Shown: piece by piece, positions 20,854 to 35,728 of the stretch | How the letters are laid out: each line of letters begins with the position of its first letter | Position numbering within the stretch: the stretch's first letter is position 1 | IMG/VR virus record: IMGVR_UViG_3300022752_000050 | DNA length: 64,000 nt | From: an uncultured virus (IMG/VR IMGVR_UViG_3300022752_000050) | Lineage: Duplodnaviria > Heunggongvirae > Uroviricota > Caudoviricetes | Strand: one strand, 5' to 3' | Program-made: the position numbers and the translations under genes | Notes under the pieces: model-generated | The model's database searches: none | The model's input: only the letters and a program-made list of their open reading frames with translations | Told to the model about the DNA's origin: nothing

Positions 20854-20884
20854 ACTATAGGGACACTTTGGAGGATCCAAGTTA
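20854..20884 (-). repeat. 31-bp element R1 (consensus)
   Basis: plus strand actatagggacactttggaggatccaagtta. Confidence 0.97.
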
Positions 20885-20919
20885 GTATCACCGAAGAATC
20901 ACACACTCACTGTTACTAA

Positions 20920-21093
20920 CTACCAACGATCAGGTACACTTAGGTCCTCAACGTATGCCTCACACTTCTCTGCAGGTTCCAACTTGAATAACTTCTCCCA
21001 GTCCAATTGATGCGGATCGAAATCACTCAAAACATCTAATTCCAGAGTGATCCTATAACGCTGCTTCTGTGCTGAATGATACGCAACTGACAT
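20920..21093 (-). CDS. Hypothetical protein (MSVAYHSAQK...)
   Basis: ATG at 21093 with GGAG upstream, downstream of a consensus promoter. Confidence 0.65.
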   Translation of the reverse strand: MSVAYHSAQKQRYRITLELDVLSDFDPHQLDWEKLFKLEPAEKCEAYVEDLSVPDRW

Positions 21094-21121
21094 AAGTGTG
21101 CTCCGTTGGTTTACTGACAAT

Positions 21122-21150
21122 ATTGTAAGATGCCTGAGAATTATTGTCAA
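21122..21150 (-). promoter_or_regulatory. sigma70-type promoter
   Basis: TTGACA-17 nt-TACAAT. Confidence 0.8.
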
Positions 21151-21223
21151 TAGTGTGAGTATATTTATCGGCGGTTGGGTGAATTTTTGTGCGGGATCTG
21201 TGAGGATTTGGTGATGCTGGGGG

Positions 21224-21262
21224 TTGACGTATTATGAGCGAGTGTGTTATAATGCGCTCGCT
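21224..21262 (+). promoter_or_regulatory. Divergent sigma70-type promoter with -10 in a hairpin loop
   Basis: TTGACG-18 nt-TATAAT; AGCGAG/CTCGCT stem around the -10; no sizeable ORF downstream. Confidence 0.65.
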
Positions 21263-21339
21263 AAGATCACAAGACTTGAGCACATTTATCAGGACATAAA
21301 TGCAAGGTCTCAGATACATTAAAAGACTCATAAATTATC

Positions 21340-21520
21340 AACAAAATGATACTCTTCTCAATACATCTGCTTATTGATTATCATTAAGAGACACTATTGA
21401 TTCTCAATAAATGTTACTTTATTGAGAATTGATTACAACGCTACATTATATTTTTTAATACATTTTTAATCGTTTTTTATCATTTTTTAACGTTATTTTG
21501 TCTAAAAAGCATAAAAAAAA
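21340..21520. other. Candidate replication origin (iterated TTCTCAATA/TATTGAGAA motifs plus AT-rich tract)
   Basis: Repeated and inverted motifs at about 21355-21430, then T/A runs at 21445-21520; non-coding. Confidence 0.4.
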
Positions 21521-21543
21521 GCAGAGGATTACCAGTCCTCTGC
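21513..21543 (-). terminator. Rho-independent terminator ending the early array
   Basis: GCAGAGGA-loop-TCCTCTGC plus T8. Confidence 0.8.
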
Positions 21544-21930
21544 CTATAACCCACTCACCACTATCTTGAGAATTATCTATACTCTATCGGAGTAACTTTT
21601 GATTGTAGATGAGGCAAACTCCTTCCTCTTTTAGGCATTAAACAAGATAAGATTTAGAACCGCAAGAGAGATAGAAACTCACCATAGATTCCGCTTCTGC
21701 AAGAGTATTAAACCATTGCGATCTCCACTCCAAATTGTTATACGGAACTTGGTAACGAACTTCATAACGAATCATGAGAATTAACCTTGATAAAGTGATA
21801 CTGAATGAGAGAACTTGTAACCAGCAAGATGACCAAAGTTTTGAGTCATTGCTTGATACTCAGACCTTGCAATAATCGTCTTAATGTGATTCGTATTGCA
21901 GTGTTGGAAGATATACTTTTTCATGAGATT

Positions 21931-22242
21931 TCAGTTGAGTTTGATACCATTACCAAAAGGAAGATCACCATCCTTTGTTGATACAAACCATTGGAAGTTC
22001 TTTTGATAAACAGACTCGCAATTCCCATGCTCTTTGAGAATAGCATTGAGACGTGATTTGGTGGTATATGTTTGATACCCACCATCGAACAATTCCAACC
22101 ATGTATCACCAATCATTGCAATCAGATTGCTATACAGATAAACAAAAGATACACCTTCGATATTAACAACTTGAGTGTTGTCTTTTTTCCAATCAGTTTC
22201 GGTACTGATTGCATCATTCATTTGGCGTTCGATGAGTCGCAT
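21931..22242 (-). CDS. Hypothetical phage protein
   Basis: 103 aa; DGGYQTYTTKSRLNA motif; first gene after R2. Confidence 0.7.
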   Translation of the reverse strand: MRLIERQMNDAISTETDWKKDNTQVVNIEGVSFVYLYSNLIAMIGDTWLELFDGGYQTYTTKSRLNAILKEHGNCESVYQKNFQWFVSTKDGDLPFGNGIKLN

Positions 22243-22265
22243 TGTGGTTTGGTGAAAGTGGTTAC

Positions 22266-22296
22266 ACTATAGGGACACTTTGGAGGATCCAAGTTA
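22266..22296 (-). repeat. 31-bp element R2 (consensus)
   Basis: Identical to R1. Confidence 0.97.
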
Positions 22297-22592
22297 GTAA
22301 CTCTTACGATTTCACTCTTGAGTATCGCAAAACTCCATCAGAAAGTAATCAACAGAAACACCTAATTCTTGTGCTTGAGAGACTACATCCAGATAAACAT
22401 TTTCAGGTAAAATGTGATAATCAGTTTCAATCATGATCAGAAATGTTCCAAACAGTGAAGGGAGTGTGAGTGATCAAACCAGCGCGGACTTGTGCGCGAT
22501 AGGATTCTTCTGCTTGCAAACGTTGAGTGTATGCTGAGAGTGCAAGTTGGACTGCAGAATCATTCTTTGCAGTATCATTCAGAATATACATA

Positions 22593-22775
22593 TCAGTTAC
22601 CGAAGAAAGCATCAAACTCATCAGCAATCTGATCAATCAATTCATCAGTTGCATCCAGGTTAAAAGTATAACAAACCCAGTCAACTGCATCATTCAGATC
22701 AGTGAAGTTGTTGCAAAGAAAGTCACGCAGATCAGGTGCGATTTCAGAGTTAAAGTCGATTTGAGTGTTGTTCAT
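22593..22775 (-). CDS. Hypothetical protein (start abuts R3)
   Basis: MNNTQIDFNSEIAPDL... Confidence 0.55.
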   Translation of the reverse strand: MNNTQIDFNSEIAPDLRDFLCNNFTDLNDAVDWVCYTFNLDATDELIDQIADEFDAFFGN

Positions 22776-22806
22776 ACTATAGGGACACTTTCGAGAATCC
22801 AAGTTA
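22776..22806 (-). repeat. 31-bp element R3
   Basis: 2 mismatches to consensus. Confidence 0.95.
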
Positions 22807-22834
22807 CTGATGCGAAAAGGATTAGGTAGGGAGA

Positions 22835-23029
22835 TCATCTCAGAATGTGACGATAATCAATGGATTTGATACACCATCCAGTTGCACATGTGATCTCTTC
22901 AACTAGATCTTCCTCATTATCTGCCTCCCAGATCTGACCAATCGTTTCATCAATGATCTGTTGTTGCTCACTTTCATCCCAGACGTAAGAGTCAAAATCA
23001 AACTCAATTTCAGTAACTTGGAATTGCAT
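22835..23029 (-). CDS. Hypothetical acidic protein
   Basis: 64 aa; EDLVEEITCATGWCI. Confidence 0.65.
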   Translation of the reverse strand: MQFQVTEIEFDFDSYVWDESEQQQIIDETIGQIWEADNEEDLVEEITCATGWCIKSIDYRHILR

Positions 23030-23186
23030 AATCAGTTCAGTTGGTTAAAGTTATCGACTACAATTTGGCAGGCAAGATCTTTAACTTCATCAAGATAATC
23101 AACCTCACCAAATTGTGATTCAAGAAGACAAATCAAATCTTCTTGAAGTTGCTCACGAACAGAAAGAATGTCAGTGGTGTTCATCA

Positions 23187-23357
23187 TCAATCAACAACAG
23201 AGTAACAAGCAACAGAGGAAGGGATGCCAGAAAGTGCTAACGAACCGTTGCGATCATCAGCATAATCTTGTGCTTCTTCTTCAGTGTAGAAAGGTCCAAT
23301 ATACTCAGGAGAATCGAGTGCATCGGATACGAAACGGACGGTGAAGGTTTTGCTCAT
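23187..23357 (-). CDS. Hypothetical protein (start abuts R4)
   Basis: MSKTFTVRF...IGPFYTEEEAQDYAD. Confidence 0.55.
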   Translation of the reverse strand: MSKTFTVRFVSDALDSPEYIGPFYTEEEAQDYADDRNGSLALSGIPSSVACYSVVD

Positions 23358-23388
23358 ACTATAGGGACACTTTGGAGGATCCAAGTTA
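23358..23388 (-). repeat. 31-bp element R4 (consensus)
   Basis: Identical to R1; upstream TGA 3 nt away. Confidence 0.97.
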
Positions 23389-23391
23389 CTA

Positions 23392-23535
23392 TCATCGAAA
23401 AACAGGATTGACACCAATCACCTTGGCAGTCGGATTACGCGACAGTGCTGTTGCTTTTGCATCCTGATTGTTGACTGCCTCTACACTTTCAGTGAAGACT
23501 TTGCCGCCAACGTAGAGTTTAACTTCGTACTTCAT
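23392..23535 (-). CDS. Small hypothetical protein, 47 aa (not in ORF track)
   Basis: MKYEVKLYVGGKVFTESVEAVNNQDAKATALSRNPTAKVIGVNPVFR. Confidence 0.65.
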   Translation of the reverse strand: MKYEVKLYVGGKVFTESVEAVNNQDAKATALSRNPTAKVIGVNPVFR

Positions 23536-23541
23536 AATCAA

Positions 23542-23820
23542 TCAAACCAGAGTAAGTTCTTGAGCAGGTTGCACAGAATAGGTGAAACGTTTTGCAGTAA
23601 TCGAAACAGCAGAAGATTGAGCACCCAATTCATCAACAACTTCCCAAAAGTCTTCACCTTCTTCGATTACAACATAACCGAAAGTTCCAGGTTGTGAAAG
23701 TTGCTTACGTCCACACTGTTTTGCATCATTCAAATCGTCGAATCGCTCTTTACGATTCCACCAACCCAAACGTGCTACATCTTCACTCGGACCGAAAGAG
23801 ATTGTGATAAAGTCAGACAT
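23542..23820 (-). CDS. Hypothetical protein
   Basis: 92-aa ORF in a tightly packed array. Confidence 0.6.
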   Translation of the reverse strand: MSDFITISFGPSEDVARLGWWNRKERFDDLNDAKQCGRKQLSQPGTFGYVVIEEGEDFWEVVDELGAQSSAVSITAKRFTYSVQPAQELTLV

Positions 23821-24172
23821 GATTTAGATAGAAGGTTCGACAGAGATTTCTTTGATGTTTAATCCACAGAGTTGATTGTAGACTCGATTGAGTATCAGTT
23901 TGTCCGCAGTCTTTGCTTTGGATTTCTCATACCAAATCGTGACACATCCATCGTAGGTTTCAACTTGGACACGATAGTTGTTCATCATTTTGCAGGATAA
24001 ATGCAGGAACTAATATGTCCAGGAGTTTGCAAGATTTGTCCTCCTTTTGCTGCACACTGTGCTTCAAGTTTTGGGTTGGTAACTGATAACATACCAACCG
24101 CAATCAAGAGAAGAAAAATACCAGCACCAAAAGTAAGAAAAACTTCAGTCCAAGTTGTGTTGTTGTTCATAA

Positions 24173-24412
24173 TCAGTACAGGAGAGAGAATGAACCACAG
24201 AAGCGACGAACCCACTGGAGAGTATCATAATGGGAACGCGGTTTGCTCATCACCATGCTAGTATTCTTCTCAGGATTGAGAGCAATCGCAACATATTGAT
24301 GACCACATTCTTGCCATTCAGGTGTCACTTGCTGAATGAACATTTGGCAGACTTTGCCTTCTTTCCAGTTGGTCGTGTAGTGAAAGACTTCAGTCATTTG
24401 GGTAGTGCTCAT
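24173..24412 (-). CDS. Hypothetical protein (start abuts R5, or at the second Met)
   Basis: MSTTQMTEVFHYTT... Confidence 0.55.
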   Translation of the reverse strand: MSTTQMTEVFHYTTNWKEGKVCQMFIQQVTPEWQECGHQYVAIALNPEKNTSMVMSKPRSHYDTLQWVRRFCGSFSLLY

Positions 24413-24443
24413 ACTATAGGGACACTTTCGAGGATCCAAGTTA
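24413..24443 (-). repeat. 31-bp element R5
   Basis: 1 mismatch to consensus. Confidence 0.96.
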
Positions 24444-24450
24444 CTAACTC

Positions 24451-24705
24451 TTACCAAGTCCCGCGCTGAATGTGAATCTTTTTGATTTCGCTATAAATGA
24501 ACTGACGAAGTTTAGGTTCGGAAGTGTGATCAAAAGCATAATAAAGACGATTCAGATACTCATTCTGTGTTGCACCAATGTTACCATTTCCACCAAGATC
24601 ATTGAGTGAAGAACCTCCGATAGATTTTCTCCTGCCGAAGTTTCCTGTGATGTTACCAGATGTTCTCAGTTTAGGGCGAATCTTTGAGAGATTAGAATAT
24701 GTCAT
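24451..24705 (-). CDS. Hypothetical basic protein
   Basis: 84 aa; ATGA overlap with the upstream gene. Confidence 0.65.
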   Translation of the reverse strand: MTYSNLSKIRPKLRTSGNITGNFGRRKSIGGSSLNDLGGNGNIGATQNEYLNRLYYAFDHTSEPKLRQFIYSEIKKIHIQRGTW

Positions 24706-24896
24706 CGGGGAAACTTGTGATTACAATCAGGGCACATAAAGTATGCAGTTCGATCTACATCACAATCATAACATCCAATCACACGACTATAGAAATACGG
24801 TGGAGAATAGTTTTCCCAGTATTGTTGTGGAATGAGTTTATCAACCCAATTAGCACCACATTCAGGACAATTCTCAAGTTTTGTGATGTCAGTCAT
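24702..24896 (-). CDS. Zinc-ribbon-like small protein
   Basis: CPEC...CPDC pairs; ATGA overlaps. Confidence 0.65.
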   Translation of the reverse strand: MTDITKLENCPECGANWVDKLIPQQYWENYSPPYFYSRVIGCYDCDVDRTAYFMCPDCNHKFPR

Positions 24897-25120
24897 CGTG
24901 CAATAATGTCCAGAGACTCCAACAGCATCAGAGCAAGTTCTATCTGATTTTCCTCATCAACCACAGGAATGTTTGCATCAACGAACTCACTTGCAAGTTG
25001 ACTAAAGAGTTCAGTTGTTCGCTCATCTGCAAATACAAATGTAGCAAACTCATTCTTAAACCCATCACGGAGAAGTTTGAGAGACTTTGTGACAGTTAGT
25101 TCGTTAATTGTGTCGTTCAT
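24893..25120 (-). CDS. Hypothetical protein
   Basis: 75 aa; ATGA overlaps. Confidence 0.65.
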   Translation of the reverse strand: MNDTINELTVTKSLKLLRDGFKNEFATFVFADERTTELFSQLASEFVDANIPVVDEENQIELALMLLESLDIIAR

Positions 25121-25368
25121 TTTACAGCGTAAATTGTGTCAAGTTGAGTTTTAATCAAGAGACCAGATGCTTTTGCTTTACGAACTGCCATTCTAATGCT
25201 TGTTTGTTCTGCTTTGGATTCTGCTCCTAATGTATCATACAAATCGTCATGAAGACGAATGTATTTTACACCTTTCTTGATGAGAGCATTGATAATCAAA
25301 GTTGCAGCAACATCAAACGCAGCAACATAATCGCCAGAAGTAGAAGTCTTAAAAGAATACATAATCAC
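25117..25368 (-). CDS. Hypothetical protein
   Basis: 83 aa; overlapping neighbours. Confidence 0.55.
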   Translation of the reverse strand: MIMYSFKTSTSGDYVAAFDVAATLIINALIKKGVKYIRLHDDLYDTLGAESKAEQTSIRMAVRKAKASGLLIKTQLDTIYAVK

Positions 25369-25796
25369 TTCGCGTACAGATAACCACCTGCCCAGTCAGC
25401 ATGTTCCAGCAACCATTCACGTTGCTCAATCAATCGCAGGTCATAACGAACACCTTTGGCAGGTGCTTTCCAAGATGCAGACTTATACACTTCACCAGTC
25501 TTTTTATCCACAAAAGCATGAACAGAGCGAGAACCAGCAGCGTTCATGATAATTTTGTGATACTTTCTACCAGTCTCAGGATAGAAATCATAGTCACAAA
25601 TACCTTGCTTGAGTTTCTCAATGCAGGCATCATGATACTCTACATCAGACGTGCGAAGTTGATGAGATTTGATACTATAATCAATGTAATTCTGACGCAG
25701 TGCTTCACACAATGCGTAAGTATGTGCTAGAACAGCATTAGCAATGTTTTCTCTTGCTTCCTGCTGTGCAGCATAATCAGCGAAGGTAGTTGTCAT
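25365..25796 (-). CDS. Conserved phage hypothetical protein
   Basis: GRKYHKI...SVHAFVDKKTGEVYKSASWKAPAKGVRY motif. Confidence 0.75.
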   Translation of the reverse strand: MTTTFADYAAQQEARENIANAVLAHTYALCEALRQNYIDYSIKSHQLRTSDVEYHDACIEKLKQGICDYDFYPETGRKYHKIIMNAAGSRSVHAFVDKKTGEVYKSASWKAPAKGVRYDLRLIEQREWLLEHADWAGGYLYAK

Positions 25797-25798
25797 AA

Positions 25799-25966
25799 TC
25801 AGAGACCAAGATCAACGGGAATGGTAATCCAAACTGCACGATCAGTTCCAATAGTGAACTGATTGCACCAGACAAAATGAGTCGCTTCTTGATTTGACAT
25901 GTTATGATTGTCCATCAAAAAGTTGACTGCTTCAGTGAAAAATTGAAATCGGTGTGTGTTGTTCAT
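25799..25966 (-). CDS. Hypothetical protein (start abuts R6)
   Basis: MNNTHRFQFFTEAVNFLM... Confidence 0.5.
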   Translation of the reverse strand: MNNTHRFQFFTEAVNFLMDNHNMSNQEATHFVWCNQFTIGTDRAVWITIPVDLGL

Positions 25967-25997
25967 ACTATAGGGACACTTTGGAGGATCCAAGTTA
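25967..25997 (-). repeat. 31-bp element R6 (consensus)
   Basis: Identical to R1. Confidence 0.97.
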
Positions 25998-26011
25998 CCA
26001 ACTCTTTGCAA

Positions 26012-26099
26012 GATAAATACTTTGCCTGGTTTGTGTGGTAACTTCTCAGGTAGGGGAGATTTTAGGATCTCCTCTCATAAATAATAAAACCACACAAAC
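26012..26099 (+). promoter_or_regulatory. Two late promoters and nested hairpins upstream of the HNH gene
   Basis: GATAAATA 26012-26019 and CATAAATA 26076-26083; perfect 11-bp inverted repeat 26029-26039/26089-26099; inner GGAGAT/ATCTCC stem. Confidence 0.55.
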
Positions 26100-26108
26100 A
26101 TAGAGCAG

Positions 26109-26591
26109 ATGAAAGAACATCCTGCCCATAAGGGTTACTTTATCACGGAAGATGGTAGAGTATTTAATTGTAACAAATTGATGGGCAAATCAGGTGGAGG
26201 AACTTATAGTGTTGTTGACTATAAAAATCCAAAAGAGTTGCAAGGTTATGATCTAAATGGTTATCGGTTCTTTTCTATAAAGAATAGATCAGTTGGAGGA
26301 TACAGATTAGTTGCTGAAACTTACATTCCAAATCCAAATAATTTGGAAGAAGTTAATCACATTGATAGAAACAAAAGTAATAATCACGCAAGCAACTTAG
26401 AGTGGATTACTAAGAAAGATAACTTAGCAGATGCTCACGCAAAAACATACAAATTAAAAAATCCTAATGGTGAAATAATAATAGTTACGAATTTGAGAAG
26501 ATGGTGTAAAGAAAACTCAATTCACGAAAGTCATTTATGGGGAAGAGGTAAAAGTAAAGGATTTACACTGATTGAAACCTTCCAGAGTTAA
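26109..26591 (+). CDS. Free-standing HNH homing endonuclease (NUMOD4/HNH_3 type)
   Basis: HPAHKGYFITEDGRV; RLVAETYIPNPNNLEEVNHIDRNKSNNHASNLEWIT; only convincing plus-strand gene. Confidence 0.85.
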   Translation: MKEHPAHKGYFITEDGRVFNCNKLMGKSGGGTYSVVDYKNPKELQGYDLNGYRFFSIKNRSVGGYRLVAETYIPNPNNLEEVNHIDRNKSNNHASNLEWITKKDNLADAHAKTYKLKNPNGEIIIVTNLRRWCKENSIHESHLWGRGKSKGFTLIETFQS

Positions 26592-27456
26592 AGTTAGCAT
26601 AAGAAAAGACCTCCCTGTTAATAAGTTTAAACATACCAAACTCATTCGTCATCACATAACCTTCTGAATCAATTCTGTCGTATCCGATGTATGCTGCAGG
26701 ACCATCATTTCGGCACAGGAACAAACAATCCTCCTTGATTGACTTGATCAGCAACCAGAACTCAATCAGCAGATGATCACAATCAAACTCTTTCGGATTG
26801 ATGTCACGACCTTCACGAATACAAGCATTAAGTTGTTTCTCAATCTTCTTTGCTTCCTTGTTAGAAACAAAGTTGACCAGAGTAGACATTTGACGGGCAA
26901 ATGCACAGACTTCCTCTACATCAGCAAACGATTCTTGACCATGCTGAATGTATGCTTCAGGTTTCACAAACTTGACGCGAGCAGTATCAATCCACAGATA
27001 AAAATCAGGTTGTGCTACAGCATCGCGCAGATCTTTCTTTGCAATGTAACAAGTATGAGGTGCAATAATGATGTTTTGCTCTACAATCTCTGGAAACTTG
27101 TAGGTGATAGTATTTGGTTTGTATTCGTCTTTACCACCAAACCCGATAAAGTCTGCTTGCACAATACCAGCAATGCGAGGTAGATTGTCGAAGCAAGCAT
27201 GAAGAATCTCTGCTACATTTCCAGTGTGATTCGCATCAATATCCTCATGCGATTCGTTGATCTTGATTTTTACTTTGTTAAAGACACTTTTGGTGCCCAC
27301 AAAGAATCGACCAGTTGCAGGATTTGTACCAAAAACTAATGCAGGAGCACCATCAATCTTGACAGACAGATTACCTTTGGCAGTGAACCAATTCAGCACA
27401 GACATATCGCCCGTGAGAATAGAATCTTCAGGATGTTGTAGGTGAGTGTTCTTCAT
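26563..27456 (-). CDS. Conserved T4-like cyanophage protein (DUF6267-like) with ligase-type motifs
   Basis: MKNTHLQHPED start abutting R7; SVKIDGAPA, FFVGTKSVFN, VQADF, EGYV, FKLINR. Confidence 0.7.
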   Translation of the reverse strand: MKNTHLQHPEDSILTGDMSVLNWFTAKGNLSVKIDGAPALVFGTNPATGRFFVGTKSVFNKVKIKINESHEDIDANHTGNVAEILHACFDNLPRIAGIVQADFIGFGGKDEYKPNTITYKFPEIVEQNIIIAPHTCYIAKKDLRDAVAQPDFYLWIDTARVKFVKPEAYIQHGQESFADVEEVCAFARQMSTLVNFVSNKEAKKIEKQLNACIREGRDINPKEFDCDHLLIEFWLLIKSIKEDCLFLCRNDGPAAYIGYDRIDSEGYVMTNEFGMFKLINREVFSYANFNSGRFQSV

Positions 27457-27487
27457 ACTATAGGGACACTTTGGAGGATCCAAGTTA
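27457..27487 (-). repeat. 31-bp element R7 (consensus)
   Basis: Identical to R1. Confidence 0.97.
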
Positions 27488-27496
27488 AGATACCAT

Positions 27497-27521
27497 AAAA
27501 AAAGAGGACTTAAGTCCTCTT
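27497..27521 (-). terminator. Rho-independent terminator just upstream of R7
   Basis: AGAGGAC-TTAA-GTCCTCT plus T run. Confidence 0.75.
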
Positions 27522-27532
27522 GCAACAGTTAT

Positions 27533-27775
27533 TTAACTGGCATACTTGGCACGAACTTGTTGATATTGAGAAACAACATAATTCAGTGCGCTTTTCACAT
27601 AAGGAGCAACAGTTTGAGTAACTTTGCTCAGATCATCACGAAGTTTGTTGACTTCATACTGATGGATTTGCCAGCGAATTTTAATGTCTTGGAAGTATTG
27701 TTCCCGAGTAATAATAACTTCAGGAACTTTCACCTCAGCAACAACATTAACGGTTTGCTTGCGATTGCGGGTCAT
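27533..27775 (-). CDS. Hypothetical protein
   Basis: MTRNRKQTV...; first ATG after R8. Confidence 0.65.
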   Translation of the reverse strand: MTRNRKQTVNVVAEVKVPEVIITREQYFQDIKIRWQIHQYEVNKLRDDLSKVTQTVAPYVKSALNYVVSQYQQVRAKYAS

Positions 27776-27793: not shown

Positions 27794-27824
27794 ACTATAG
27801 GAACACTTTAGAGGATCCAAGTTA
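27794..27824 (-). repeat. 31-bp element R8
   Basis: 2 mismatches; upstream TAA 3 nt away. Confidence 0.95.
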
Positions 27825-27827: not shown

Positions 27828-28049
27828 TTACAAAGGAAGTTTTGCTACGCTTTTACCTTTCTTGTGAGCATCAATAAACTTTCGTGCAGAACTTTCGGTT
27901 CTACACACTTTCAGTTGTTGCCCATTGTGTATAATCATTAGTTGCTTGCCAAATGGTACAACAGCGTATTCCCAATTCTTACCAACAACGAAACCGATTG
28001 GTCCTGGGTTAGCATCAAGAATGTTAGAGTTTGTTGGTTGATTCATCAA
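27828..28049 (-). CDS. Hypothetical protein
   Basis: 73 aa; overlaps the helicase stop. Confidence 0.65.
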   Translation of the reverse strand: MMNQPTNSNILDANPGPIGFVVGKNWEYAVVPFGKQLMIIHNGQQLKVCRTESSARKFIDAHKKGKSVAKLPL

Positions 28050-29278
28050 CGCCTCACAACAGATACAGCAGGTTCACCTTTAGTAAAGATGGTATCAACA
28101 ACTGCTTGAACTTTACGGGCAGTAGAGATACCAACAGAAGTATAAACTGGAATTACACACAGAGCGAAAGATTTGGTATATTGACCCAGTGCTCCAGGTT
28201 GAATCTTACCATCAGCAAGACCTTTAGCATCATCGTGATGCAATCTTACAATCCGCCCAATGCTTTGTGCAATTCCAATATAATCCATTGGACGCATAAA
28301 GATTACTGCTTCAAGTCCACTAACAGAAATACCCTCACTAATGATAGAATGGTGAATAACTACAAACTTTTTAGAGTTATCTTTACCCCAGGCATTTAGC
28401 GTATCAAAAAATTGCTCTCGGTTGACTTTTTTACCATCAATAATTGCACCAGTGCGACTTGTAATCACCATCCAAGAATAACCACGGTCTTTCAACTCTT
28501 TGCAGAAGTCAGTTTCAGAAATCAGACCAATAATTTGCTTGGTAGTTTTAGCACAAACAAGAACTTTACCAACCTTATAGTCATCAATCGTTTCCATCAG
28601 ATTCTCTGCATCACGGTCAAAAATGACCTGACGACCTTTAACCATAGGAAGTTGCTTGACTTCTACTTTAGGTGGAACAATGTATCCACCACGAACCATC
28701 TCTGGACCAGAAACATTTGCAATGATTTGCCCATAGACTTCACTCCAATTCATTCCAGGTTTACCGACAACATTGGAGTTTTTAGGAGTTGCAGTATAGG
28801 AATAGAACCTTTTTGCAGTCTTTGAAAAATACTCAACAGCAGGAAAGAAGTGCTTTTGAACCGAATTATGTGCCTCATCTATATGAACAGTATCAACCTC
28901 AATTCCTGCCTGCTGAAGACGAGAGAGAGAATGATAGGTGGTGAAGATAAGTTTGTGCGAATCTTTATGAGTATTCACCCAGTTACGAATCTCATAGGGA
29001 CGAGTAGAAGATTCCCAGTGAGTTTCTCCACTGTGGCAGTGAAATACCTTTGCATTAGTGATAAACTCCAGATACTCGTGAGAGAGTTGCTCTGCAAGCA
29101 AAATGCGAGGAGAAACAACAAAAACAGTTTTAGGAGTTTCTGATGCAAACTCCCGCGCAGTATCAGAAATTCCCACCAGAGTTTTACCTGCACCAGTTAC
29201 AGCACAGATAATACCTTTAGAATACTTAACCATTGCCTTTACGGAACGGTCTTGATGAGGACGAAGAGTAGGAATCAC
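28046..29278 (-). CDS. SF2 DEAH-box helicase (ResIII-like)
   Basis: LRPHQ Q motif, TGAGKT, DEAH, TATP, ISEGIS, QSIGRIVR. Confidence 0.88.
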   Translation of the reverse strand: MIPTLRPHQDRSVKAMVKYSKGIICAVTGAGKTLVGISDTAREFASETPKTVFVVSPRILLAEQLSHEYLEFITNAKVFHCHSGETHWESSTRPYEIRNWVNTHKDSHKLIFTTYHSLSRLQQAGIEVDTVHIDEAHNSVQKHFFPAVEYFSKTAKRFYSYTATPKNSNVVGKPGMNWSEVYGQIIANVSGPEMVRGGYIVPPKVEVKQLPMVKGRQVIFDRDAENLMETIDDYKVGKVLVCAKTTKQIIGLISETDFCKELKDRGYSWMVITSRTGAIIDGKKVNREQFFDTLNAWGKDNSKKFVVIHHSIISEGISVSGLEAVIFMRPMDYIGIAQSIGRIVRLHHDDAKGLADGKIQPGALGQYTKSFALCVIPVYTSVGISTARKVQAVVDTIFTKGEPAVSVVRR

Positions 29279-29466
29279 TGGTTCAGAATGTTGTTAAGAT
29301 CAAGAATAGCAGACTTCATTGCAGAGCGGGAGTATCCTGTAGCATATGGATAACTATGCACATCATCTTCCGATAATGAGTCTACATCATAGCACACGTT
29401 GATTGCATTTTGCAAATCACGAATTATACGCTGCAGGGTATCAACCCTCACATTCACAGTTTCCAT
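29275..29466 (-). CDS. Hypothetical protein
   Basis: 63 aa; YPYATGYSRSAM. Confidence 0.6.
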   Translation of the reverse strand: METVNVRVDTLQRIIRDLQNAINVCYDVDSLSEDDVHSYPYATGYSRSAMKSAILDLNNILNQ

Positions 29467-29503
29467 AATGTTGTAGGCGATTCTAGAGGGGTCTGGTGCT
29501 CAT

Positions 29504-29534
29504 ATCATAGAGACACTTCAGAGGATCCTAGTTA
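29504..29534 (-). repeat. 31-bp element R9 (divergent)
   Basis: atcatagagacacttcagaggatcctagtta, 6 mismatches; upstream TGA 3 nt away. Confidence 0.9.
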
Positions 29535-29537
29535 GAA

Positions 29538-30122
29538 TCAATATGAAGTGTAGCGATTCTTGAGTTGTTTTTCGGATGTTTTTCCTGTTGCCTGAAGAAC
29601 AATATCTCTCAACGTTGCTTCACCCTTTTTCTTCACTGCAAGTCTTTCTTTTCTTGATAATCCAGATGCTTTTGCTGGTTTATAATCAGGATGTGCTTGT
29701 TGTGTTGGTTTCTTTGTAGAAAGAAGTTTAGTTGCTGTTTTCTCTGCTTCTTTTGCTTTTGGTTTTGCTGCTGTTGCAGTTCCACCACCTTTCTTTGCTG
29801 CTGCTCTTGCTTGTGCTGCTCTTCTTCTTTCTTCTTTCGCTGCTGCTAATTGTCTCTCTCTTGCAGATCCACGCTCTTGTGTTGGTTGCTGTTCTCTTTC
29901 AGATCTTTGTCTTTGAGAACCAATATCGCTGCGTGGTTTGTAATCAACGGGTTCCATTTTGCCACCGCCGACTGCTTTCATGCGACGCCTTTCAGGAGTT
30001 GTTTTCTTACGCTTAGCACCAATTCTCCCGCCTTCACCTGTTTTGCGAACTTGAGAGGAAGACATTACACTTGCATCATAAGATGCTTCGGCAAGAATCA
30101 TAAACTCCTGAAAGGTTTTCAT
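29538..30122 (-). CDS. Basic protein with T4 internal-protein-like capsid targeting sequence
   Basis: Begins MKTFQEFMILAE; Lys/Arg-rich; CTAAATA late-type promoter upstream. Confidence 0.6.
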   Translation of the reverse strand: MKTFQEFMILAEASYDASVMSSSQVRKTGEGGRIGAKRKKTTPERRRMKAVGGGKMEPVDYKPRSDIGSQRQRSEREQQPTQERGSARERQLAAAKEERRRAAQARAAAKKGGGTATAAKPKAKEAEKTATKLLSTKKPTQQAHPDYKPAKASGLSRKERLAVKKKGEATLRDIVLQATGKTSEKQLKNRYTSY

Positions 30123-30148
30123 CGTTATCTAAACACTTTTTTTAGTAT

Positions 30149-30349
30149 TTAGTTGTCTATGTCTTTTTGTCGCAATCCACCTTTGGAAACACGTCCTTCT
30201 TTATAGAATTGTCGGACACGTTCGCGGCGAGTTGCAATCAAGAGATCATATTCTTCTTGTTGTTGTTTGCTGAAAATAAAATCTTGTTGTCTCCAAGAAG
30301 TTTTAAGTTCTTGGATGTGAGGCAGCACGTTAACAATTTGTTCAGTCAT
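30149..30349 (-). CDS. Hypothetical protein
   Basis: 66-aa ORF. Confidence 0.6.
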   Translation of the reverse strand: MTEQIVNVLPHIQELKTSWRQQDFIFSKQQQEEYDLLIATRRERVRQFYKEGRVSKGGLRQKDIDN

Positions 30350-30353
30350 TTAT

Positions 30354-30542
30354 TCAGGATGCAGGAGTTTCGGTGTCGGTGGGTTCTTCATTAGTTTCTA
30401 CCTTAGTCACATAGCGAATGTTGTAAGGAGAACTGTAGAACCTGCGGAAAGCAGTGACAATAATAATGAACGCTGAAATAACACCAACCAAGCCAAGGAA
30501 GGTAACAGCATCACCAGTGAAAGTGTAGGTGTCGGGATTCAT
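30354..30542 (-). CDS. Small membrane protein
   Basis: One hydrophobic segment VTFLGLVGVISAFIIIVTAF. Confidence 0.6.
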   Translation of the reverse strand: MNPDTYTFTGDAVTFLGLVGVISAFIIIVTAFRRFYSSPYNIRYVTKVETNEEPTDTETPAS

Positions 30543-30874
30543 AGTAGTTTAGAAGTCGATGTAACCAGAATCAATCAAAGATTGAAGAGTGCGTCCATAA
30601 TGCCCCTGCAACCACTGGTGCGCTTTTGTATCATAGATTTGTTGAAAAAGAGTAAAGAACTCTTCTTCGTCAAGTTCGCCAGATTCATAGCGAAACAAAA
30701 GATCGGTGTCAGGCATAATCAAAAATCAACGTTAGATTTCAAAAAAGCATCAAAGGATTTATCATCATCTTCTTCATCAAAGAGACCTTCATTCATCTCC
30801 TCAACAAAGTCAAATGAAGAAAACTCCTCAATTTGGATGTCGTCAAAGGAATCCATAATTCATAGGTTGCTTAC

Positions 30875-30905
30875 ATTATAGAGACATTTTAGAGGATCCA
30901 AGTTG
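30875..30905 (-). repeat. 31-bp element R10 (divergent)
   Basis: attatagagacattttagaggatccaagttg, 5 mismatches; upstream TAA 3 nt away. Confidence 0.9.
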
Positions 30906-30908
30906 GTG

Positions 30909-31052
30909 TTAACGAACAAGAATCTTTATATCTTTTGCTCCCTGTTGTTCTATGACTTTAGACCAAAACTCAGCATCATCAATTTTTAAGAATGTTGCAG
31001 TTTGCGTTGAGTATCCTTTCTTTTTTGGTTTCAAATATGTTACTTGGTACAT
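30909..31052 (-). CDS. Small hypothetical protein, 47 aa (not in ORF track)
   Basis: MYQVTYLKPKKKGYSTQTATFLKIDDAEFWSKVIEQQGAKDIKILVR. Confidence 0.6.
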   Translation of the reverse strand: MYQVTYLKPKKKGYSTQTATFLKIDDAEFWSKVIEQQGAKDIKILVR

Positions 31053-31218
31053 CATTCCAATGTCGAAGAGCGTTTGCTACAATAAAACAGTTTGTAATTA
31101 AAATAGACAGAAACATCAAAAGACGAATAAAAGCAATCTTATCCGCCTCTTGATCATTTTTACTTGCTTTTTCTCCCAAAGATTTAGCTAACAATCTCCA
31201 GAAACTTTTATGTTTCAT
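30979..31218 (-). CDS. Small membrane protein
   Basis: WRLLAKSLGEKA...DKIAFIR...NCFIVANALRHW. Confidence 0.6.
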   Translation of the reverse strand: MKHKSFWRLLAKSLGEKASKNDQEADKIAFIRLLMFLSILITNCFIVANALRHWNDVPSNIFETKKERILNANCNILKN

Positions 31219-31403
31219 TTATCAGATTCTTTAAGCAGTTTAACTTGATTCCAATCACTTTTATACACCAAAACGCAAACATCATTTACGGGATGATTTC
31301 CCACACTAACGCAAACAGAGATGTATTCATCACAAACAAATTGAACTTTTCCTATCCAGTTTTTGTGTTGAACTACAATACCTTCAGTAAAAGATGGTTT
31401 CAT
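31215..31403 (-). CDS. Hypothetical protein
   Basis: 62 aa; ATGA overlaps. Confidence 0.6.
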   Translation of the reverse strand: MKPSFTEGIVVQHKNWIGKVQFVCDEYISVCVSVGNHPVNDVCVLVYKSDWNQVKLLKESDK

Positions 31404-31705
31404 ACAAATGCACTTTCTAGCGGAGTCTGCCTCAACGGCATTGCTGTATAGTTTCTAGTGTTCTCAAAACTTACAATTTTACCAACCGTTTTTGAATTTA
31501 TAGGAGAATAGAACTTTTGATTCTTACTTGACCAAAATCCCCAAATACAACGAATTGGTTTGCCCAAATTGTAGTCAAACTCTCTGTCATAACATATCCA
31601 AATGCTAAAAACATTTCGCTTAAACTCCTCAACTTCATAGAACATTCCTTCTGGTGCTTTATGAGTAAACTGTGAAATCAAATCAATGGAGAGTTTCATC
31701 AACAA
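31400..31705 (-). CDS. Hypothetical protein
   Basis: 101-aa ORF. Confidence 0.65.
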   Translation of the reverse strand: MLMKLSIDLISQFTHKAPEGMFYEVEEFKRNVFSIWICYDREFDYNLGKPIRCIWGFWSSKNQKFYSPINSKTVGKIVSFENTRNYTAMPLRQTPLESAFV

Positions 31706-31862
31706 TCGTAATCTTTGACGTATGAAAGCAGTTTAATCTGTTCTTGGAGTTGGAGAATCTCTTTTTGCTGTTCTGTAATCTTTTGTTGCAATTGAGTGAT
31801 TCTATCTTGATATTGAGTTTTAAGTTCACCAATCATACAATTAGTGTGTTCTACATTTTGTG

Positions 31863-32102
31863 TCATGTCGTAAAAGACTCAACAACACTAGATTCCATTT
31901 CCTCTGAAAGTTGATAGACACGGGCATTTAGAATGTTTTCTTTTAGATCAGTATAATACTGTTCATAAAATCCACCAGTATCTTCAGCAGAAATAAGATC
32001 AAAACACTCATTGTCATCCTCTGCAACTACATTCCAGAGTCCACCATATTCTGAACTCGGAAAAGGAACATAATGATCAACAATGTAAAGAAATTTTGCC
32101 AT
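31863..32102 (-). CDS. Hypothetical protein
   Basis: LYIVDHYVPFPSSEYGG motif. Confidence 0.7.
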   Translation of the reverse strand: MAKFLYIVDHYVPFPSSEYGGLWNVVAEDDNECFDLISAEDTGGFYEQYYTDLKENILNARVYQLSEEMESSVVESFTT

Positions 32103-32553
32103 TTGTCTTTGTAAATTACTCCTTGATTTTAGAAAAGAATGAGGGAAATGTCAATCAATAGAACTCCGCAAGATAATAATCAACTGTTATCTCAAGTTTT
32201 TCTGCTTCACGCTCAACTTCTTTCCAAAACTCTTCCGCTGCCTTGTTCATTTCTGCTTGTTGGATTAGTTTTTTGATACGGTCAGAAATCATTTGCGTTT
32301 GTGCTCATCTAGATGATAAAAGTGTTTGGAAAATAGTGCAAAGAACATCCATGCAACTGATGCAGAGATGATGAGAAAATAAATCACTTTACATTACAAT
32401 CAGGATGCCATCCCGCTTGTTGTTGACAGTATCGTTCTTTTGGAGTTGGTTGATTGTATGCTTCATAGAGTTTTTGGTCTCGTTGTATAAGAAATACATT
32501 CCATGCAACAATTACAACAAAACCAATCAATCCTGCAGCAATATACTTGCGGT

Positions 32554-32742
32554 TCATTTGGAAGAAGAGTTAGATTTGAAAATAAGATTAGCAAGAAAGA
32601 TGATAGCAAATTTCTGCCAGAAAGACAAGATTACACCAAACCAAGACAGAATCAGTCCAAGTAACCACGCCTCAAAAAGAAGTCCAGCAGTTGCAAGAAC
32701 AATTACAGCAAAAAGAGCAAGAGCAGTAGCAGAAGTTTTCAT
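32554..32742 (-). CDS. Small membrane protein
   Basis: Hydrophobic 62-aa ORF. Confidence 0.55.
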   Translation of the reverse strand: MKTSATALALFAVIVLATAGLLFEAWLLGLILSWFGVILSFWQKFAIIFLANLIFKSNSSSK

Positions 32743-32745
32743 AGA

Positions 32746-33180
32746 TCAAACAGCGAGGGCACCAGAAGGGATTTCGACAACTTCAGGCAGTTTGCTATCA
32801 TCAAACTGATTCATGTTGTAGCAAACCCATTCACCACTGCGGAAGACATATGCAAACTCTTCGCTATTATCGGGCAGAAGATATGCACACAGGTCAGCAT
32901 CAAGGCGAGGAGGGCAATTCTCACCACGTTGGGAGTAGTATTGGGGACCATATTCCTCAACCTTATTAGGATAAGAACCCCAACGGTCTCCAGTCCAACG
33001 CTCATTAGTCCAACAAGTGCTCATATCGCCACCATCAATCAGTTCGGCGGCAAGTTCTTTGCTATTGTAGTGTGTCTTCAGGATGCGACCCAACCATTCG
33101 GGATAGGAATCCCAGTGATGATAAGCAGAGAGCACAGAACCATCAGAGAGTTCGATGCCGATGCGTCCACGAGTTGCCAT
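32746..33180 (-). CDS. Conserved phage hypothetical protein
   Basis: MATRGRIGIEL...YHHWDSYPEWLG..L..HY; first gene after R11. Confidence 0.75.
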   Translation of the reverse strand: MATRGRIGIELSDGSVLSAYHHWDSYPEWLGRILKTHYNSKELAAELIDGGDMSTCWTNERWTGDRWGSYPNKVEEYGPQYYSQRGENCPPRLDADLCAYLLPDNSEEFAYVFRSGEWVCYNMNQFDDSKLPEVVEIPSGALAV

Positions 33181-33196
33181 TTGATCTTGTGATTAC

Positions 33197-33227
33197 ACTA
33201 CAGAGACACTTTGGAGGATCCAAGTTA
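33197..33227 (-). repeat. 31-bp element R11
   Basis: 2 mismatches; methyltransferase TGA 3 nt away. Confidence 0.95.
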
Positions 33228-33230
33228 CTA

Positions 33231-33680
33231 TCAAACAAAGATAGTGCCTTGATTGAGAAAAATCTTTTGCATCATTAGATGCTCATCATCAGATTGTTGA
33301 TTAAGTTTTTTATCTGGATTTAGAGAATCTCCCATAATGATAGTTCCTCCACCCAATCTTTTCTTGCAAAGATCTACATTATCTCTCATAATATCCACAC
33401 CATAGATGTCTTTCAGTGCCTCTTGTTCGGATACCTGATATGCAAAGACTTTTAACCATTTAACAGCAACAAGAAACTGTCCATCACCACAAGCAGGATC
33501 AAGAACTGTTTTACCAGGAGCAAAATCATTCAGATCTGCTTTCTTTAACATTCGGATGACAAGATCTGTTGGTGTGAATACTTCAGCAGTTGCCTTGATT
33601 CTATATTCATCCCGATCAATCTCACCCATGTAGGTGTGATCGTTCATGCAATCTTTGATTTTATCCCACATATTGCTCAA
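33231..33680 (-). CDS. DNA methyltransferase, SAM-binding half
   Basis: EVFTP (motif X), VLDPACGDGQFL (motif I), IYGVDI (II), GDSL (III); no motif IV. Confidence 0.8.
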   Translation of the reverse strand: MSNMWDKIKDCMNDHTYMGEIDRDEYRIKATAEVFTPTDLVIRMLKKADLNDFAPGKTVLDPACGDGQFLVAVKWLKVFAYQVSEQEALKDIYGVDIMRDNVDLCKKRLGGGTIIMGDSLNPDKKLNQQSDDEHLMMQKIFLNQGTIFV

Positions 33681-34557
33681 TGTACTCCCTCTCCTCTTCA
33701 GTCAATCCAAAAAATAGATACATTTCACTATCAGTCATTTTACGATCTGTTGGTAGATTTGGCAATGCACAGAATACTTTTTCATTACCAAAACCAGACC
33801 ATTTTGCTGTCATGAGAATATATCTGATCAACTTACTATTCAGATTATATGATAAGTTATATCCACATTCATCAGATGGCACGAGCACATAATATGCCAT
33901 GTCTGTGCCACCTAATTCACCTTCATCGTAGAATGGTTTTGTATAACCACTACGAGACCACATTATTTTCTTTTTATTTGCCCAATCTTGCCGAATCTTG
34001 GAATACCAAATCTGCTTGTTTGTGTGTAGAATAGGATGCACATATTCATCATCTTGAGTTTTACTGATGATGCCAGTGTTTCTGAGTAGATTAACATTAT
34101 GACAGGTTACATAATCATATCTTACATCCAATTTGTCAGTTGTATCAAACACCACCTTGCGATGAATAGATAGTGATTCTTCACATACATCAATCGGCAA
34201 ATAGAAGGTGGATTTATCAATTTTGTGATAAAATGTGCTGACATCAGTTACAATTTCTGTTTTTCCGTCATTGAGTTGGTTGCGAATCATGTAGTCCGCA
34301 AATGTGCTTCCCACTTTCGGAAAATAGGTTTTTGTATCCAAGTGCAGAAACTTGACTGCCTTTGACTGAAAGATTTTGAGAATCTTGTTGGATGGTGATA
34401 GAAAACTACTGGGAGAAACCTGAAGAAGAACCCCTCCAGGTTTTAACCAGTCACTGAATGTTTTCTGAGTAAAATCAATCCACAGTTTGTGTTGTGTTTT
34501 CTTTTTGTTTTTCGAATCCTGAAATGGTGGATTCGTTGCTACAACATCAAACTGCAT
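33661..34557 (-). CDS. DNA amino-methyltransferase, catalytic plus TRD half
   Basis: FDVVATNPPF (motif IV) at the N-terminus, LKPGGVL..VSPSSFL, C-terminal LNSKLIRY TRD-like region; start probably the ATG in a TGATG overlap. Confidence 0.8.
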   Translation of the reverse strand: MQFDVVATNPPFQDSKNKKKTQHKLWIDFTQKTFSDWLKPGGVLLQVSPSSFLSPSNKILKIFQSKAVKFLHLDTKTYFPKVGSTFADYMIRNQLNDGKTEIVTDVSTFYHKIDKSTFYLPIDVCEESLSIHRKVVFDTTDKLDVRYDYVTCHNVNLLRNTGIISKTQDDEYVHPILHTNKQIWYSKIRQDWANKKKIMWSRSGYTKPFYDEGELGGTDMAYYVLVPSDECGYNLSYNLNSKLIRYILMTAKWSGFGNEKVFCALPNLPTDRKMTDSEMYLFFGLTEEEREYIEQYVG

Positions 34558-35681
34558 CAGCACACTCCTGCTTTTTTAAGATTAAGATAGGTATTGATAG
34601 AGGTAGAAATCTCTTTGGACTTTTTAGGGCGCCGCTCACCGTGAAGCAGGTCAACACCTTCTTTCTCGTGATATTGAGCACCAGAGTATTTTGCTTTAGG
34701 AAGATACCAAGCACCATTCTTTTGCAGAGTGAAAGGAACTTCGATGCTCACAATCACACCCGCAGAATCACGCAGAGTGAACAAAACACCCTTCTTATTT
34801 GTGATATATTCTACCACAGATTCATCAGAGTTGACACGTTCCAGAATCTGTGCATATTTCTGATTAAACATGGAGCACAGATATTTGCCCTTACCAACAA
34901 GCAGAATCTCCTCATCATAGTTAAGTCCTGCCATCTTGATGATGCGACTCTTCACTGCATCTTTAGAGATCGAATCCAGAGCAGAGATAATCGTTTGTGC
35001 TGCTTTCAGACCATAGGATGCACAATCACTCTTCCACTGAGAAGATACATTACTCCAGTAACGTGCTTGCTCACCATAAGTATAAAACTCTTTGATGGTG
35101 TCATTTACAGTGTCAAAGAAGTTATACACATCTTTGAGAGCATCGTAACCAAGTTCTTTAATCAAACAATCACGATACTCACGATCACATCCCTGAAATA
35201 CTCCGTCAGTGAAAGGATCGTGGAAAATACCAACACCAGCAGACTCAAACAGAAAATTGTTCAGAAATGAGTGCCAAGTGCCTGAACACAACTGAATACG
35301 ATTAAATCCTTTCTTGTAGTTCTTGAGAGAGAAAGAAACAGTGGAACCATCCTCAAACTGAATGACAAAATCACCCTTCAGTTTCTTATCACGAAACTCA
35401 CGCTCAACGTCTACAAAGTCAAACTTGCGTCCAGGATACTTGGCGAGCAAATCAGCAAAGAACTTATCAACAACAGCATCAATGTTTTCCTTGTAGACGC
35501 TCTTGTTAAACTCATTCAGTACATCACGATCTTCACAATACTGAGTGAAAGTATTGTATTTGTCGCTCACATCATCGGTGAGTGCAACTTCGTTCTCAAC
35601 AGCATGTGCCTGCAGAAGATACACAATGTATGCTTCTGCAGCATCCTGAATGAAATGATCTTTTGTGCAACCAGCGCCCAT
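34557..35681 (-). CDS. Putative restriction endonuclease (PD-(D/E)xK-like)
   Basis: KGDFVIQFEDGSTVSFSLKNY resembles the D-x(n)-SLK nuclease variant; translationally coupled to the methyltransferase genes. Confidence 0.55.
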   Translation of the reverse strand: MGAGCTKDHFIQDAAEAYIVYLLQAHAVENEVALTDDVSDKYNTFTQYCEDRDVLNEFNKSVYKENIDAVVDKFFADLLAKYPGRKFDFVDVEREFRDKKLKGDFVIQFEDGSTVSFSLKNYKKGFNRIQLCSGTWHSFLNNFLFESAGVGIFHDPFTDGVFQGCDREYRDCLIKELGYDALKDVYNFFDTVNDTIKEFYTYGEQARYWSNVSSQWKSDCASYGLKAAQTIISALDSISKDAVKSRIIKMAGLNYDEEILLVGKGKYLCSMFNQKYAQILERVNSDESVVEYITNKKGVLFTLRDSAGVIVSIEVPFTLQKNGAWYLPKAKYSGAQYHEKEGVDLLHGERRPKKSKEISTSINTYLNLKKAGVC

Positions 35682-35697
35682 AATAAAATGTGTTTGT

Positions 35698-35728
35698 ATA
35701 GTAGGTACGTTTTAGAGGATCCAAGTTA
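35698..35728 (-). repeat. 31-bp element R12 (most divergent)
   Basis: atagtaggtacgttttagaggatccaagtta, 7 mismatches; upstream TAA 3 nt away. Confidence 0.88.

Follow-up and report, generated by a model that had tools for sequence, protein, structure and literature searches.

A repeated 31-bp element of a T4-like cyanophage as a candidate promoter class, with fam44 as its putative reader

Here we consider a 31-bp element that recurs twelve times on the minus strand of a 64,000-nucleotide stretch of DNA (the window, by which we mean this whole stretch) from an uncultured virus, IMG/VR record IMGVR_UViG_3300022752_000050. The window is part of a T4-like cyanophage; 408 of the 427 phage records that match it are named Synechococcus, Prochlorococcus or Cyanophage, and the public runs that cover it best are freshwater and lake metagenomes. 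The copies sit in the hyperplastic small-gene region of this T4-like phage, in a block flanked by baseplate and tail genes. A preliminary description took the block for an array of gene cassettes in which the element serves both as expression signal and as recombination substrate. We find that the element is best read as a phage-specific promoter class, spanning positions -31 to -1, for an early block of small genes, and that a protein encoded within the block, fam44, is a candidate for its reader. The twelve copies are as follows.

20854..20884, minus strand: element copy, 0 mismatches; the ATG of a 95-residue gene (20566-20853) lies directly 3'.
22266..22296, minus strand: element copy, 0 mismatches; a 24-nt leader separates it from gene 21931-22242 (Kyano_Gp96).
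22776..22806, minus strand: element copy, 2 mismatches; the ATG of 22593-22775 lies directly 3'.
23358..23388, minus strand: element copy, 0 mismatches; the ATG of 23187-23357 lies directly 3'.
24413..24443, minus strand: element copy, 1 mismatch; the ATG of 24173-24412 lies directly 3'.
25967..25997, minus strand: element copy, 0 mismatches; the ATG of 25799-25966 lies directly 3'.
27457..27487, minus strand: element copy, 0 mismatches; the ATG of the DUF6267 gene lies directly 3'.
27794..27824, minus strand: element copy, 2 mismatches; it heads unit 27533-27775.
29504..29534, minus strand: element copy, 6 mismatches; it lies just after the fam44 stop codon, and its +1 ATG opens a frame of 6 codons only.
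30875..30905, minus strand: element copy, 5 mismatches.
33197..33227, minus strand: element copy, 2 mismatches.
35698..35728, minus strand: element copy, 7 mismatches; it heads the methylase module.

The preliminary description was correct about the twelve co-oriented copies, their mismatches (none in five copies, 1 in one, 2 in three, and 5, 6 and 7 in the rest) and their intervals of 0.3-2.5 kb, measured at 337-2501 bp between successive copies. It was also correct that no copy lies outside this 15 kb; the next-best match in the 64-kb window has 10 mismatches, a profile built from the 12 copies scores them at 37-56 bits against at most 2.6 in the rest of the window and less than 0 in three shuffles, and 100 dinucleotide shuffles of the window contain no site with three or fewer mismatches. 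That the copies are intergenic holds broadly, but left edges often abut or overlap the stop codon of the upstream gene, and 7 of the 12 copies run straight into an ATG, which in 6 of these is an in-frame gene start. The intervals were said to hold unrelated open reading frames; this does not apply to 33231-35681, which resembles one methylase module. In one public run, contigs identical to the window break at the identical copies and bridge the divergent ones at 29504, 30875, 33197 and 35698; the longest identical stretch between copies is 38 bp, and gene order across the identical copies rests on one assembly.

Further copies exist in related phages. Across 161 related loci, all 372 matches to the right half of the element are on the coding strand, and 55 of these loci carry at least three copies of what we call the class II element. 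Carriers include S-SM2, SynMITS9220M01, S-B05 and P-TIM68, plus two single-cell viral records, and one complete genome (G001) shares the box of the window, with 14 copies within 18 kb and one looser match elsewhere. The left half is uniform inside a genome and differs between lineages; in other words, a shared core (C at -21, AAA at -16 to -14 and TA-R-T at -4 to -1, R being a purine) is combined with a lineage-specific left box at -30 to -18. The counterpart of this element is class I, present in Syn9, S-SRM01 and Bellamy, in which a palindrome lies ∼30 bp upstream of a TAnnnT box; the block in the window contains no class I sites.

What, then, does the element do? The most informative gene is the one behind the copy at 27457, for which two features matter.

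26563..27456, minus strand: DUF6267 gene; its start ATG abuts the copy at 27457, and its N-terminus is conserved under either promoter class.
27502..27521, minus strand: intrinsic-terminator-like hairpin with a T run, directly upstream of the copy at 27457.

In the 77 loci viewed, the DUF6267 gene is preceded by a class I or a class II promoter, depending on the relative, and in the place of copy 27457 of the window, a class I promoter (palindrome with -10 box) stands in the closest relative. It is chiefly because the two classes swap before the same gene that we read the element as a promoter, and the earlier claim of an expression signal thus gains support, by way of inference, from position, strand, in-frame ATGs and exchange with a sigma-70-type promoter. 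The idea of a sigma-70 promoter with a conserved spacer fares less well; a sigma-70 scan called 74 sites, of which the 60 listed include no element copy, and the conserved part would be better explained as a protein-binding box than as a sigma-70 spacer. As a separate observation, some class I loci with few palindromes (L247, L215 and others) have class II-like block genes, class I or sparse promoters and no fam44, and further promoter classes may exist.

The start site can be approached through what follows the element. The next two bases are R-T in 282 of 288 copies; 187 distinct copies are followed by an ATG, which in 171 is in frame with the next gene, and 77 of the in-frame cases lack another Met within codons 2-11. 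For class I, 75 of 215 candidates have an ATG exactly six bases past the TAnnnT box and R-T is found there in 152 of 215, and in both classes the first ATG lies at a distance of 0 or, for the most part, 15-21. Taken together with the terminator before copy 27457 and the conserved DUF6267 N-terminus, the in-frame ATGs, the R-T and these distances make it most likely that transcription starts at the first base after the element, a purine. In this register TATAGT occupies -6 to -1 and TAnnnT is absent from -12 to -7. The alternative is a promoter read by the host, with a start 6-9 bases downstream and TATAGT or TAGT-R-T as its -10 box; such a start would leave out the in-frame ATG found at 171 copies, and an ATG at offset 6 past the element occurs in only 1 of 288. 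This placement belongs to a broader reading, which we consider improbable, in which gene conversion keeps the copies alike and fam44 merely hitch-hikes.

Several other explanations of the signal were tried and dropped. The resemblance of the core to extracytoplasmic-function or sigma-54 consensus promoters fails across lineages, as does a weak internal dyad in the element. A second phage sigma factor was likewise considered as reader and rejected; Pfam Sigma70_r2 matched a single protein in S-SM2 and another in S-SRM01, which we take to be the late sigma factor gp55, homologues of the S-SM2 protein occur in two complete genomes, one of each class, and Sigma70_r4_2 had no match in 5 genomes. 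An early apparent signal for gene 20920-21093 and three other families as readers did not hold up.

The gene that we propose instead, and the parts of it that bear on the argument, are these.

29538..30122, minus strand: fam44, candidate reader gene; 194 residues, basic, with 48 K+R against 21 D+E.
29604..29657, minus strand: fam44 codons 156-173, a confidently predicted basic helix whose residues vary with the left-box type, most strongly residue 161.
30146..30152, minus strand: late-promoter-like TAAATA motif upstream of fam44.

The TAAATA motif precedes 7 of 10 structural-region genes checked and 0 of 3 element-headed genes. The N-terminus of fam44 is like the capsid-targeting sequence of T4, with F4 and F7 invariant in 41 sequences, although this is a resemblance only; the features expected of a targeting peptide (residues 4 and 7 and a downstream Glu) are present in fam44, and the motif is common to other cyanophage proteins. 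The protein falls in no Pfam or PHROG family, Pfam domains are missing from ten longer homologues as well, and an Atlas search returned unnamed viral clusters only. In S-SM2 and SynMITS9220M01 the gene is SSM2_065 and SynMITS9220M01_053, respectively. Its relatives number 2,871 at 90% clustering and 200 at 50%. In the AlphaFold model it is mostly unstructured, and the C-terminal helix is the best part, with a predicted local distance difference test score (pLDDT) of 84-88.

fam44 and the class II element occur together. The gene is in 22 class II loci and in 0 of 79 class I loci; among loci chosen via other genes and spanning the fam44 slot, it is present in 15 of 15 of class II and 0 of 10 of class I; and of the whole genomes, all 3 of class II contain it and none of the 4 of class I. 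When these seven genomes were compared, four S-SM2 frames had counterparts in the two remaining class II genomes and in none of class I, namely fam44, a 61-residue acidic gene and two short frames that apparently overlap other genes; the acidic gene also turns up in 8 loci of class I. In a tree of 25 genes, Bellamy is the sister of S-SM2 and falls among class II phages, but its promoters are of class I and it lacks fam44. Only 10 of 50,697 phage records encode fam44. Strict class II matches accompany 71 of the 82 fam44 loci, and of the other 11, nine were viewed (L458 was box-typed and L457 left out of viewing), with variant copies in eight and copies later found in the ninth.

The C-terminal helix, moreover, varies with the left box. 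On a tree of 63 distinct fam44 proteins, the 11 box types require 11 changes (minimum 10, 42.8 when shuffled), and for 60 of the 63 the N-terminal part requires 24 changes and the C-terminal part 11. Pairs with the same box are recognized from residues 141-185 with an area under the curve (AUC) of 0.94-0.96, against 0.54-0.70 up to residue 145, and residue 161 alone takes 7 states across the 11 boxes with 95% purity. Among 24 block genes, fam44 is the only one that separates same-box from different-box pairs (AUC 0.93 for the C-terminal part, 0.95 for its best segment); the other 23 reach at most 0.68, and the genes flanking fam44 reach 0.61 and 0.65. Additionally, 20 further fam44 proteins fit the helix code by eye, some of them near-copies of training rows. 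S-B05 is instructive here. This phage first seemed element-free, but its helix matched the CTCACC-box group, predicting its box, and a search with that box returned 14 copies, 12 of them heading genes on the other strand at 116-125 kb from fam44; the class I genomes Syn9, Bellamy and S-SRM01 contain 0 copies of it. The class II block of S-B05 (MK799832; L501, L504) is in two parts, ∼120 kb apart on opposite strands.

These data bear directly on the host-read alternative, in which fam44 tracks the box through having its 3' end beside a copy. Most fam44 genes do end within a few bases of a copy, and copies differ at 3.7 of 30 positions within a genome against 6.2 between genomes with the same box, as gene conversion would have it. 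However, other genes that likewise end beside a copy do not track the box (AUC 0.52-0.68), and different fam44 clades with the same box share the helix motif. The match also persists in five fam44 proteins with no adjacent copy and, in S-B05, across ∼120 kb, which argues against linkage as the whole explanation. From this co-variation, fam44 probably binds the left box.

How might such a protein act? fam44 would be made late in the infected cell, its N-terminal targeting peptide would direct it into the head, and it would enter the next host together with the phage DNA; its late synthesis, packaging and injection are inferred from the TAAATA motif and the N-terminus. There, its C-terminal basic helix would read the left box at -30 to -18, and the bound protein would let host RNA polymerase start at the element. 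About half of the messages would begin on their own AUG, and most others would have leaders of 15-21 nt. Selection by fam44, aided by recombination from copy to copy, would keep the copies alike. We favour activation over repression because of the missing -10 box together with the targeting-like peptide, and a virion-delivered activator of class II promoters is, on balance and by a modest lean, our best explanation of the whole. The most complete version, toward which we are slightly more doubtful than not, is a private lock and key, standing in for the ordinary early promoter in one subgroup of T4-like cyanophages: an injected, late-made fam44 whose helix follows a residue-to-base code would activate about a dozen non-sigma-70, often leaderless promoters, with at least 11 co-diversifying specificities, while the genes in between would pass freely from lineage to lineage, so that each phage would switch on only its own first genes.

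A number of observations weigh against this reading. A late-made binder could equally be a repressor. Ten of 406 distinct copies bear the box of another lineage unchanged, so a mismatch is tolerated at least temporarily. fam44 lies inside the block, usually just upstream of a copy, and linkage explains part of the signal; the related loci are not independent samples, and co-variation falls short of proving binding. The first test (22 proteins, coarse box groups, local identity) gave an AUC of 0.53, and the signal emerged with finer box groups, global alignment and more loci. The model of fam44 is of low confidence (predicted template-modelling score 0.24) and too poor for a fold search, and a profile search of the PDB with fam44 found no solved relative (best E value 0.84). 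On the promoter side, TAGT-R-T fits TAnnnT in most copies, as the downstream start would have it, and as a -10 box would give a T4-middle-like geometry; positions +6/+7 are C/A-rich in copies lacking the ATG; and an RNA run (share 0.10) yielded short contigs only. Lastly, a possible exception is L217, a 20-kb fragment with 7 class II copies and no fam44 within the fragment. L217 is itself a mosaic; its right part is 99% identical to class II loci L218-L220, and its left part is class I in type and has no fam44 slot. It is a real recombinant or a chimeric assembly.

Some of these observations fit an alternative that keeps both the promoter and the protein-box pair and changes the role of the protein. 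fam44 would then be a late repressor or another kind of box binder, for example one organizing or protecting incoming DNA or marking self and non-self in co-infection, and host polymerase would read the promoter unaided or with another factor. The late-promoter motif suits a shut-off role, the left box overlaps the polymerase footprint, foreign boxes are tolerated, and the co-variation evidence is silent on the sign of the effect. What speaks for activation is that, with no TAnnnT at -12 to -7, host sigma-70 alone should read the element poorly, that the targeting-like N-terminus suggests packaging, and that class I phages, with their normal -10 boxes, do without fam44. We regard a repressor or other binder as rather unlikely.

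We turn now to recombination, the subject of the preliminary description. There are single cases in which units delimited by elements have been lost, replaced or moved. One relative (L040) is missing exactly what lies between copies 27794 and 27457 and retains a single hybrid copy; the unit behind copy 27794 (27533-27775) is replaced in the closest relative; in a relative that is ∼90% identical (L016), gene 20566-20853 sits between two elements upstream of its window position, with its ends in elements; and whole single-element units are gained and lost among the 55 class II loci. With the circles documented for the promoter-early-stem-loop elements (PeSLs) of RB49/phi1 as precedent (PMC2839356, in the text available), one could suppose that the copies are alike because recombination excises, inserts and reorders units, and that this is their main role beside promotion. 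The statistics do not bear this out, and turnover extends over the whole block. In 23 close pairs, junctions are broken at 113 of 300 elements and 191 of 500 plain borders (p=0.94); in 50 dereplicated loci, adjacencies are discordant in order at 33 of 112 elements and 43 of 178 plain borders (p=0.34), with class I alike, and neighbours across an element are kept slightly more often (0.39 vs 0.31). By hand count, 7 of the 12 gene-level differences from the closest relative lie off elements, 3 at their upstream edge and 2 end in elements, and among 19 distinct displaced blocks, 10 have neither end at an element and 9 have one. Terminator-like hairpins stand upstream of only 1 of 12 copies in the window and 13 of 351 in relatives, and none of the 15 joints listed for contigs of four runs (150 more are unlisted) is a skip or circle from element to element with good support, contigs being prone to drop rare forms such as circles. 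We consider a PeSL-like shuffling array to have a small chance of being right.

The integron analogy of the preliminary description goes a step further and makes the block a cassette array driven by a recombinase, for which direct repeats that abut stop and start codons would be apt. The element is 31 bp with a lineage-variable left half, and neither of its strands folds stably (z between -1.4 and +0.9, 10 strands). No integrase was found among the 65 + 28 window proteins scanned, as the preliminary description had noted for the window, and a wider search found no tyrosine or serine recombinase in the whole class II genomes G001, S-SM2, SynMITS9220M01, S-B05 and P-TIM68, in a scan that detected its positive controls. 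Backbone gene order is conserved, and breaks are no commoner at the element than at plain borders, which is largely the outcome under which, by the account of the preliminary description itself, the element would be only a regulatory motif. An integron-like array is thus very improbable, and the broader cassette-shuffling reading is weak. What survives of the recombination-substrate claim is a passive role, visible in the L040 deletion, the L016 reordering and the foreign boxes; there is no enrichment of breakpoints, and element junctions provide occasional passive homology for ordinary recombination, no more than other gene borders do.

Other features of the block and the window are listed below.

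26109..26591, plus strand: free-standing HNH endonuclease gene; a reversed insertion at the 3' end of the DUF6267 gene, which the closest relative lacks.
28046..29278, minus strand: superfamily-2 helicase gene, a block gene.
33231..35681, minus strand: three-gene module of a 374-residue protein of no known family and two methyltransferase-like open reading frames.
21122..21150, minus strand: sigma-70 promoter close to consensus (11/12), located within the block ahead of gene 20920-21093.
32126-32154 and 36977-37005: further near-consensus promoters from the sigma-70 scan.

Instead of the HNH gene, the closest relative has an AT-rich insertion resembling a homing endonuclease near 31400. The methylase module is present in few relatives and is possibly a host-derived restriction-modification set. 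At plain junctions, the arrangement stop-TT-ATG (TGATTATG) is common (23034, 23540, 24175, 25367, 25801 and 30721); its matches number 9 within the 16-kb block and 6 across the remaining 48 kb, and it may supply micro-homology for single-gene swaps. The stretch 21330-21640 is AT-rich and non-coding, with a terminator-like hairpin at 21519-21545 and, in relative L016, extra short tandem repeats; it is a candidate origin or small RNA with no Rfam match, and Rfam has no family anywhere within the element block. Further along the window, ∼54060-54360 on the minus strand holds a tRNA gene split by a group I intron (Rfam RF00028, 54128-54318), which resembles tRNA-Leu(UAA) and was not called by ARAGORN, and 39772-47264 holds two genes that resemble tail-fibre genes, with repeat units of 51 bp and 288 bp and with S74 chaperone domains at the C-terminus.

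If the proposed mechanism is true, a T4-like phage would have, in fam44, a transcription activator that is sequence-specific and delivered by the virion, and its pairs with the left boxes would be natural orthogonal protein-promoter pairs for cyanobacteria. The putative specificity helix occurs in natural variants that cover at least 11 boxes, and four of the phages (S-SM2, SynMITS9220M01, S-B05 and P-TIM68) are in culture. Cassette shuffling would add little, and the case for it here falls short of the one made for known PeSLs.

How does this compare with known systems? Integron attC arrays also place repeats between whole genes; unlike them, the element has no hairpin and no integrase, has a promoter function of its own and stands in a conserved order. 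PeSLs are described for RB49/phi1, PST/T4 and nt-1/KVP40 in the available portions of two sources (PMC2839356, PMC4122927) and are judged unlikely for S-PM2 in those of a third (PMC4503421). Like PeSLs, the class II elements are repeated promoter modules between non-essential genes of the hyperplastic region, sometimes at the ends of indels; unlike PeSLs, they lack a stem-loop, sigma-70 -35/-10 boxes, a Shine-Dalgarno sequence (there is often no leader) and breakpoint enrichment.

The middle promoters of T4 are a closer parallel. The accessible text of PMC2988021 describes MotA as an early product that reads a box replacing the -35 box and, with AsiA, redirects host polymerase at promoters needing an excellent sigma-70 -10 box, 12-13 bp downstream of the MotA box. 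fam44 would similarly be a phage protein matched to a box upstream of a core promoter; unlike MotA, it looks late-made and packaged, and the MotA box is not lineage-variable in such a fashion. T4-like cyanophages are reported to lack MotA and AsiA (PMC5780444, in the part available); neither family was found among the window proteins scanned (PHROGs, Pfam), and fam44 has no family match to MotA. For delivery, the parallel is with the internal proteins and Alt of T4, which according to the portions available have a capsid-targeting N-terminus (targeting being carried in IPIII by residues 4 and 7; PMC9026906) and are injected with the DNA, IPI blocking a restriction enzyme and Alt modifying polymerase enzymatically and boosting early transcription (PMC9026906, PMC3012670, PMC2988021). 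fam44 is like them in its basic character and targeting-like N-terminus, and its packaging is predicted from sequence. It would be unlike them in its mode of action, neither IPI nor Alt appearing as a sequence-specific promoter binder in those portions.

Another close counterpart of the class II element is the early-gene regulatory element of T4-like cyanophages (Syn9, P-TIM40) reportedly described by Doron et al. in 2016 (ISME J 10:1437). We found no description of the class II element or of fam44 in the literature searched, and that survey may include class II. We know of no factor identified behind the Syn9 element. The Syn9 block has its palindrome ∼30 bp upstream of a normal TAnnnT box, with no class II copies and no fam44, whereas the class II element is compact, carries a lineage-specific box and, in the start-based register, is without a -10 box. 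The two nevertheless occupy the same slot between the tail-fibre genes and gp25/gp6, with similar small genes and a repeated non-standard signal heading units, and the class II core resembles one arm of the Syn9 palindrome. For the question of how T4-like cyanophages start their first transcripts, class II thus offers a named candidate reader.

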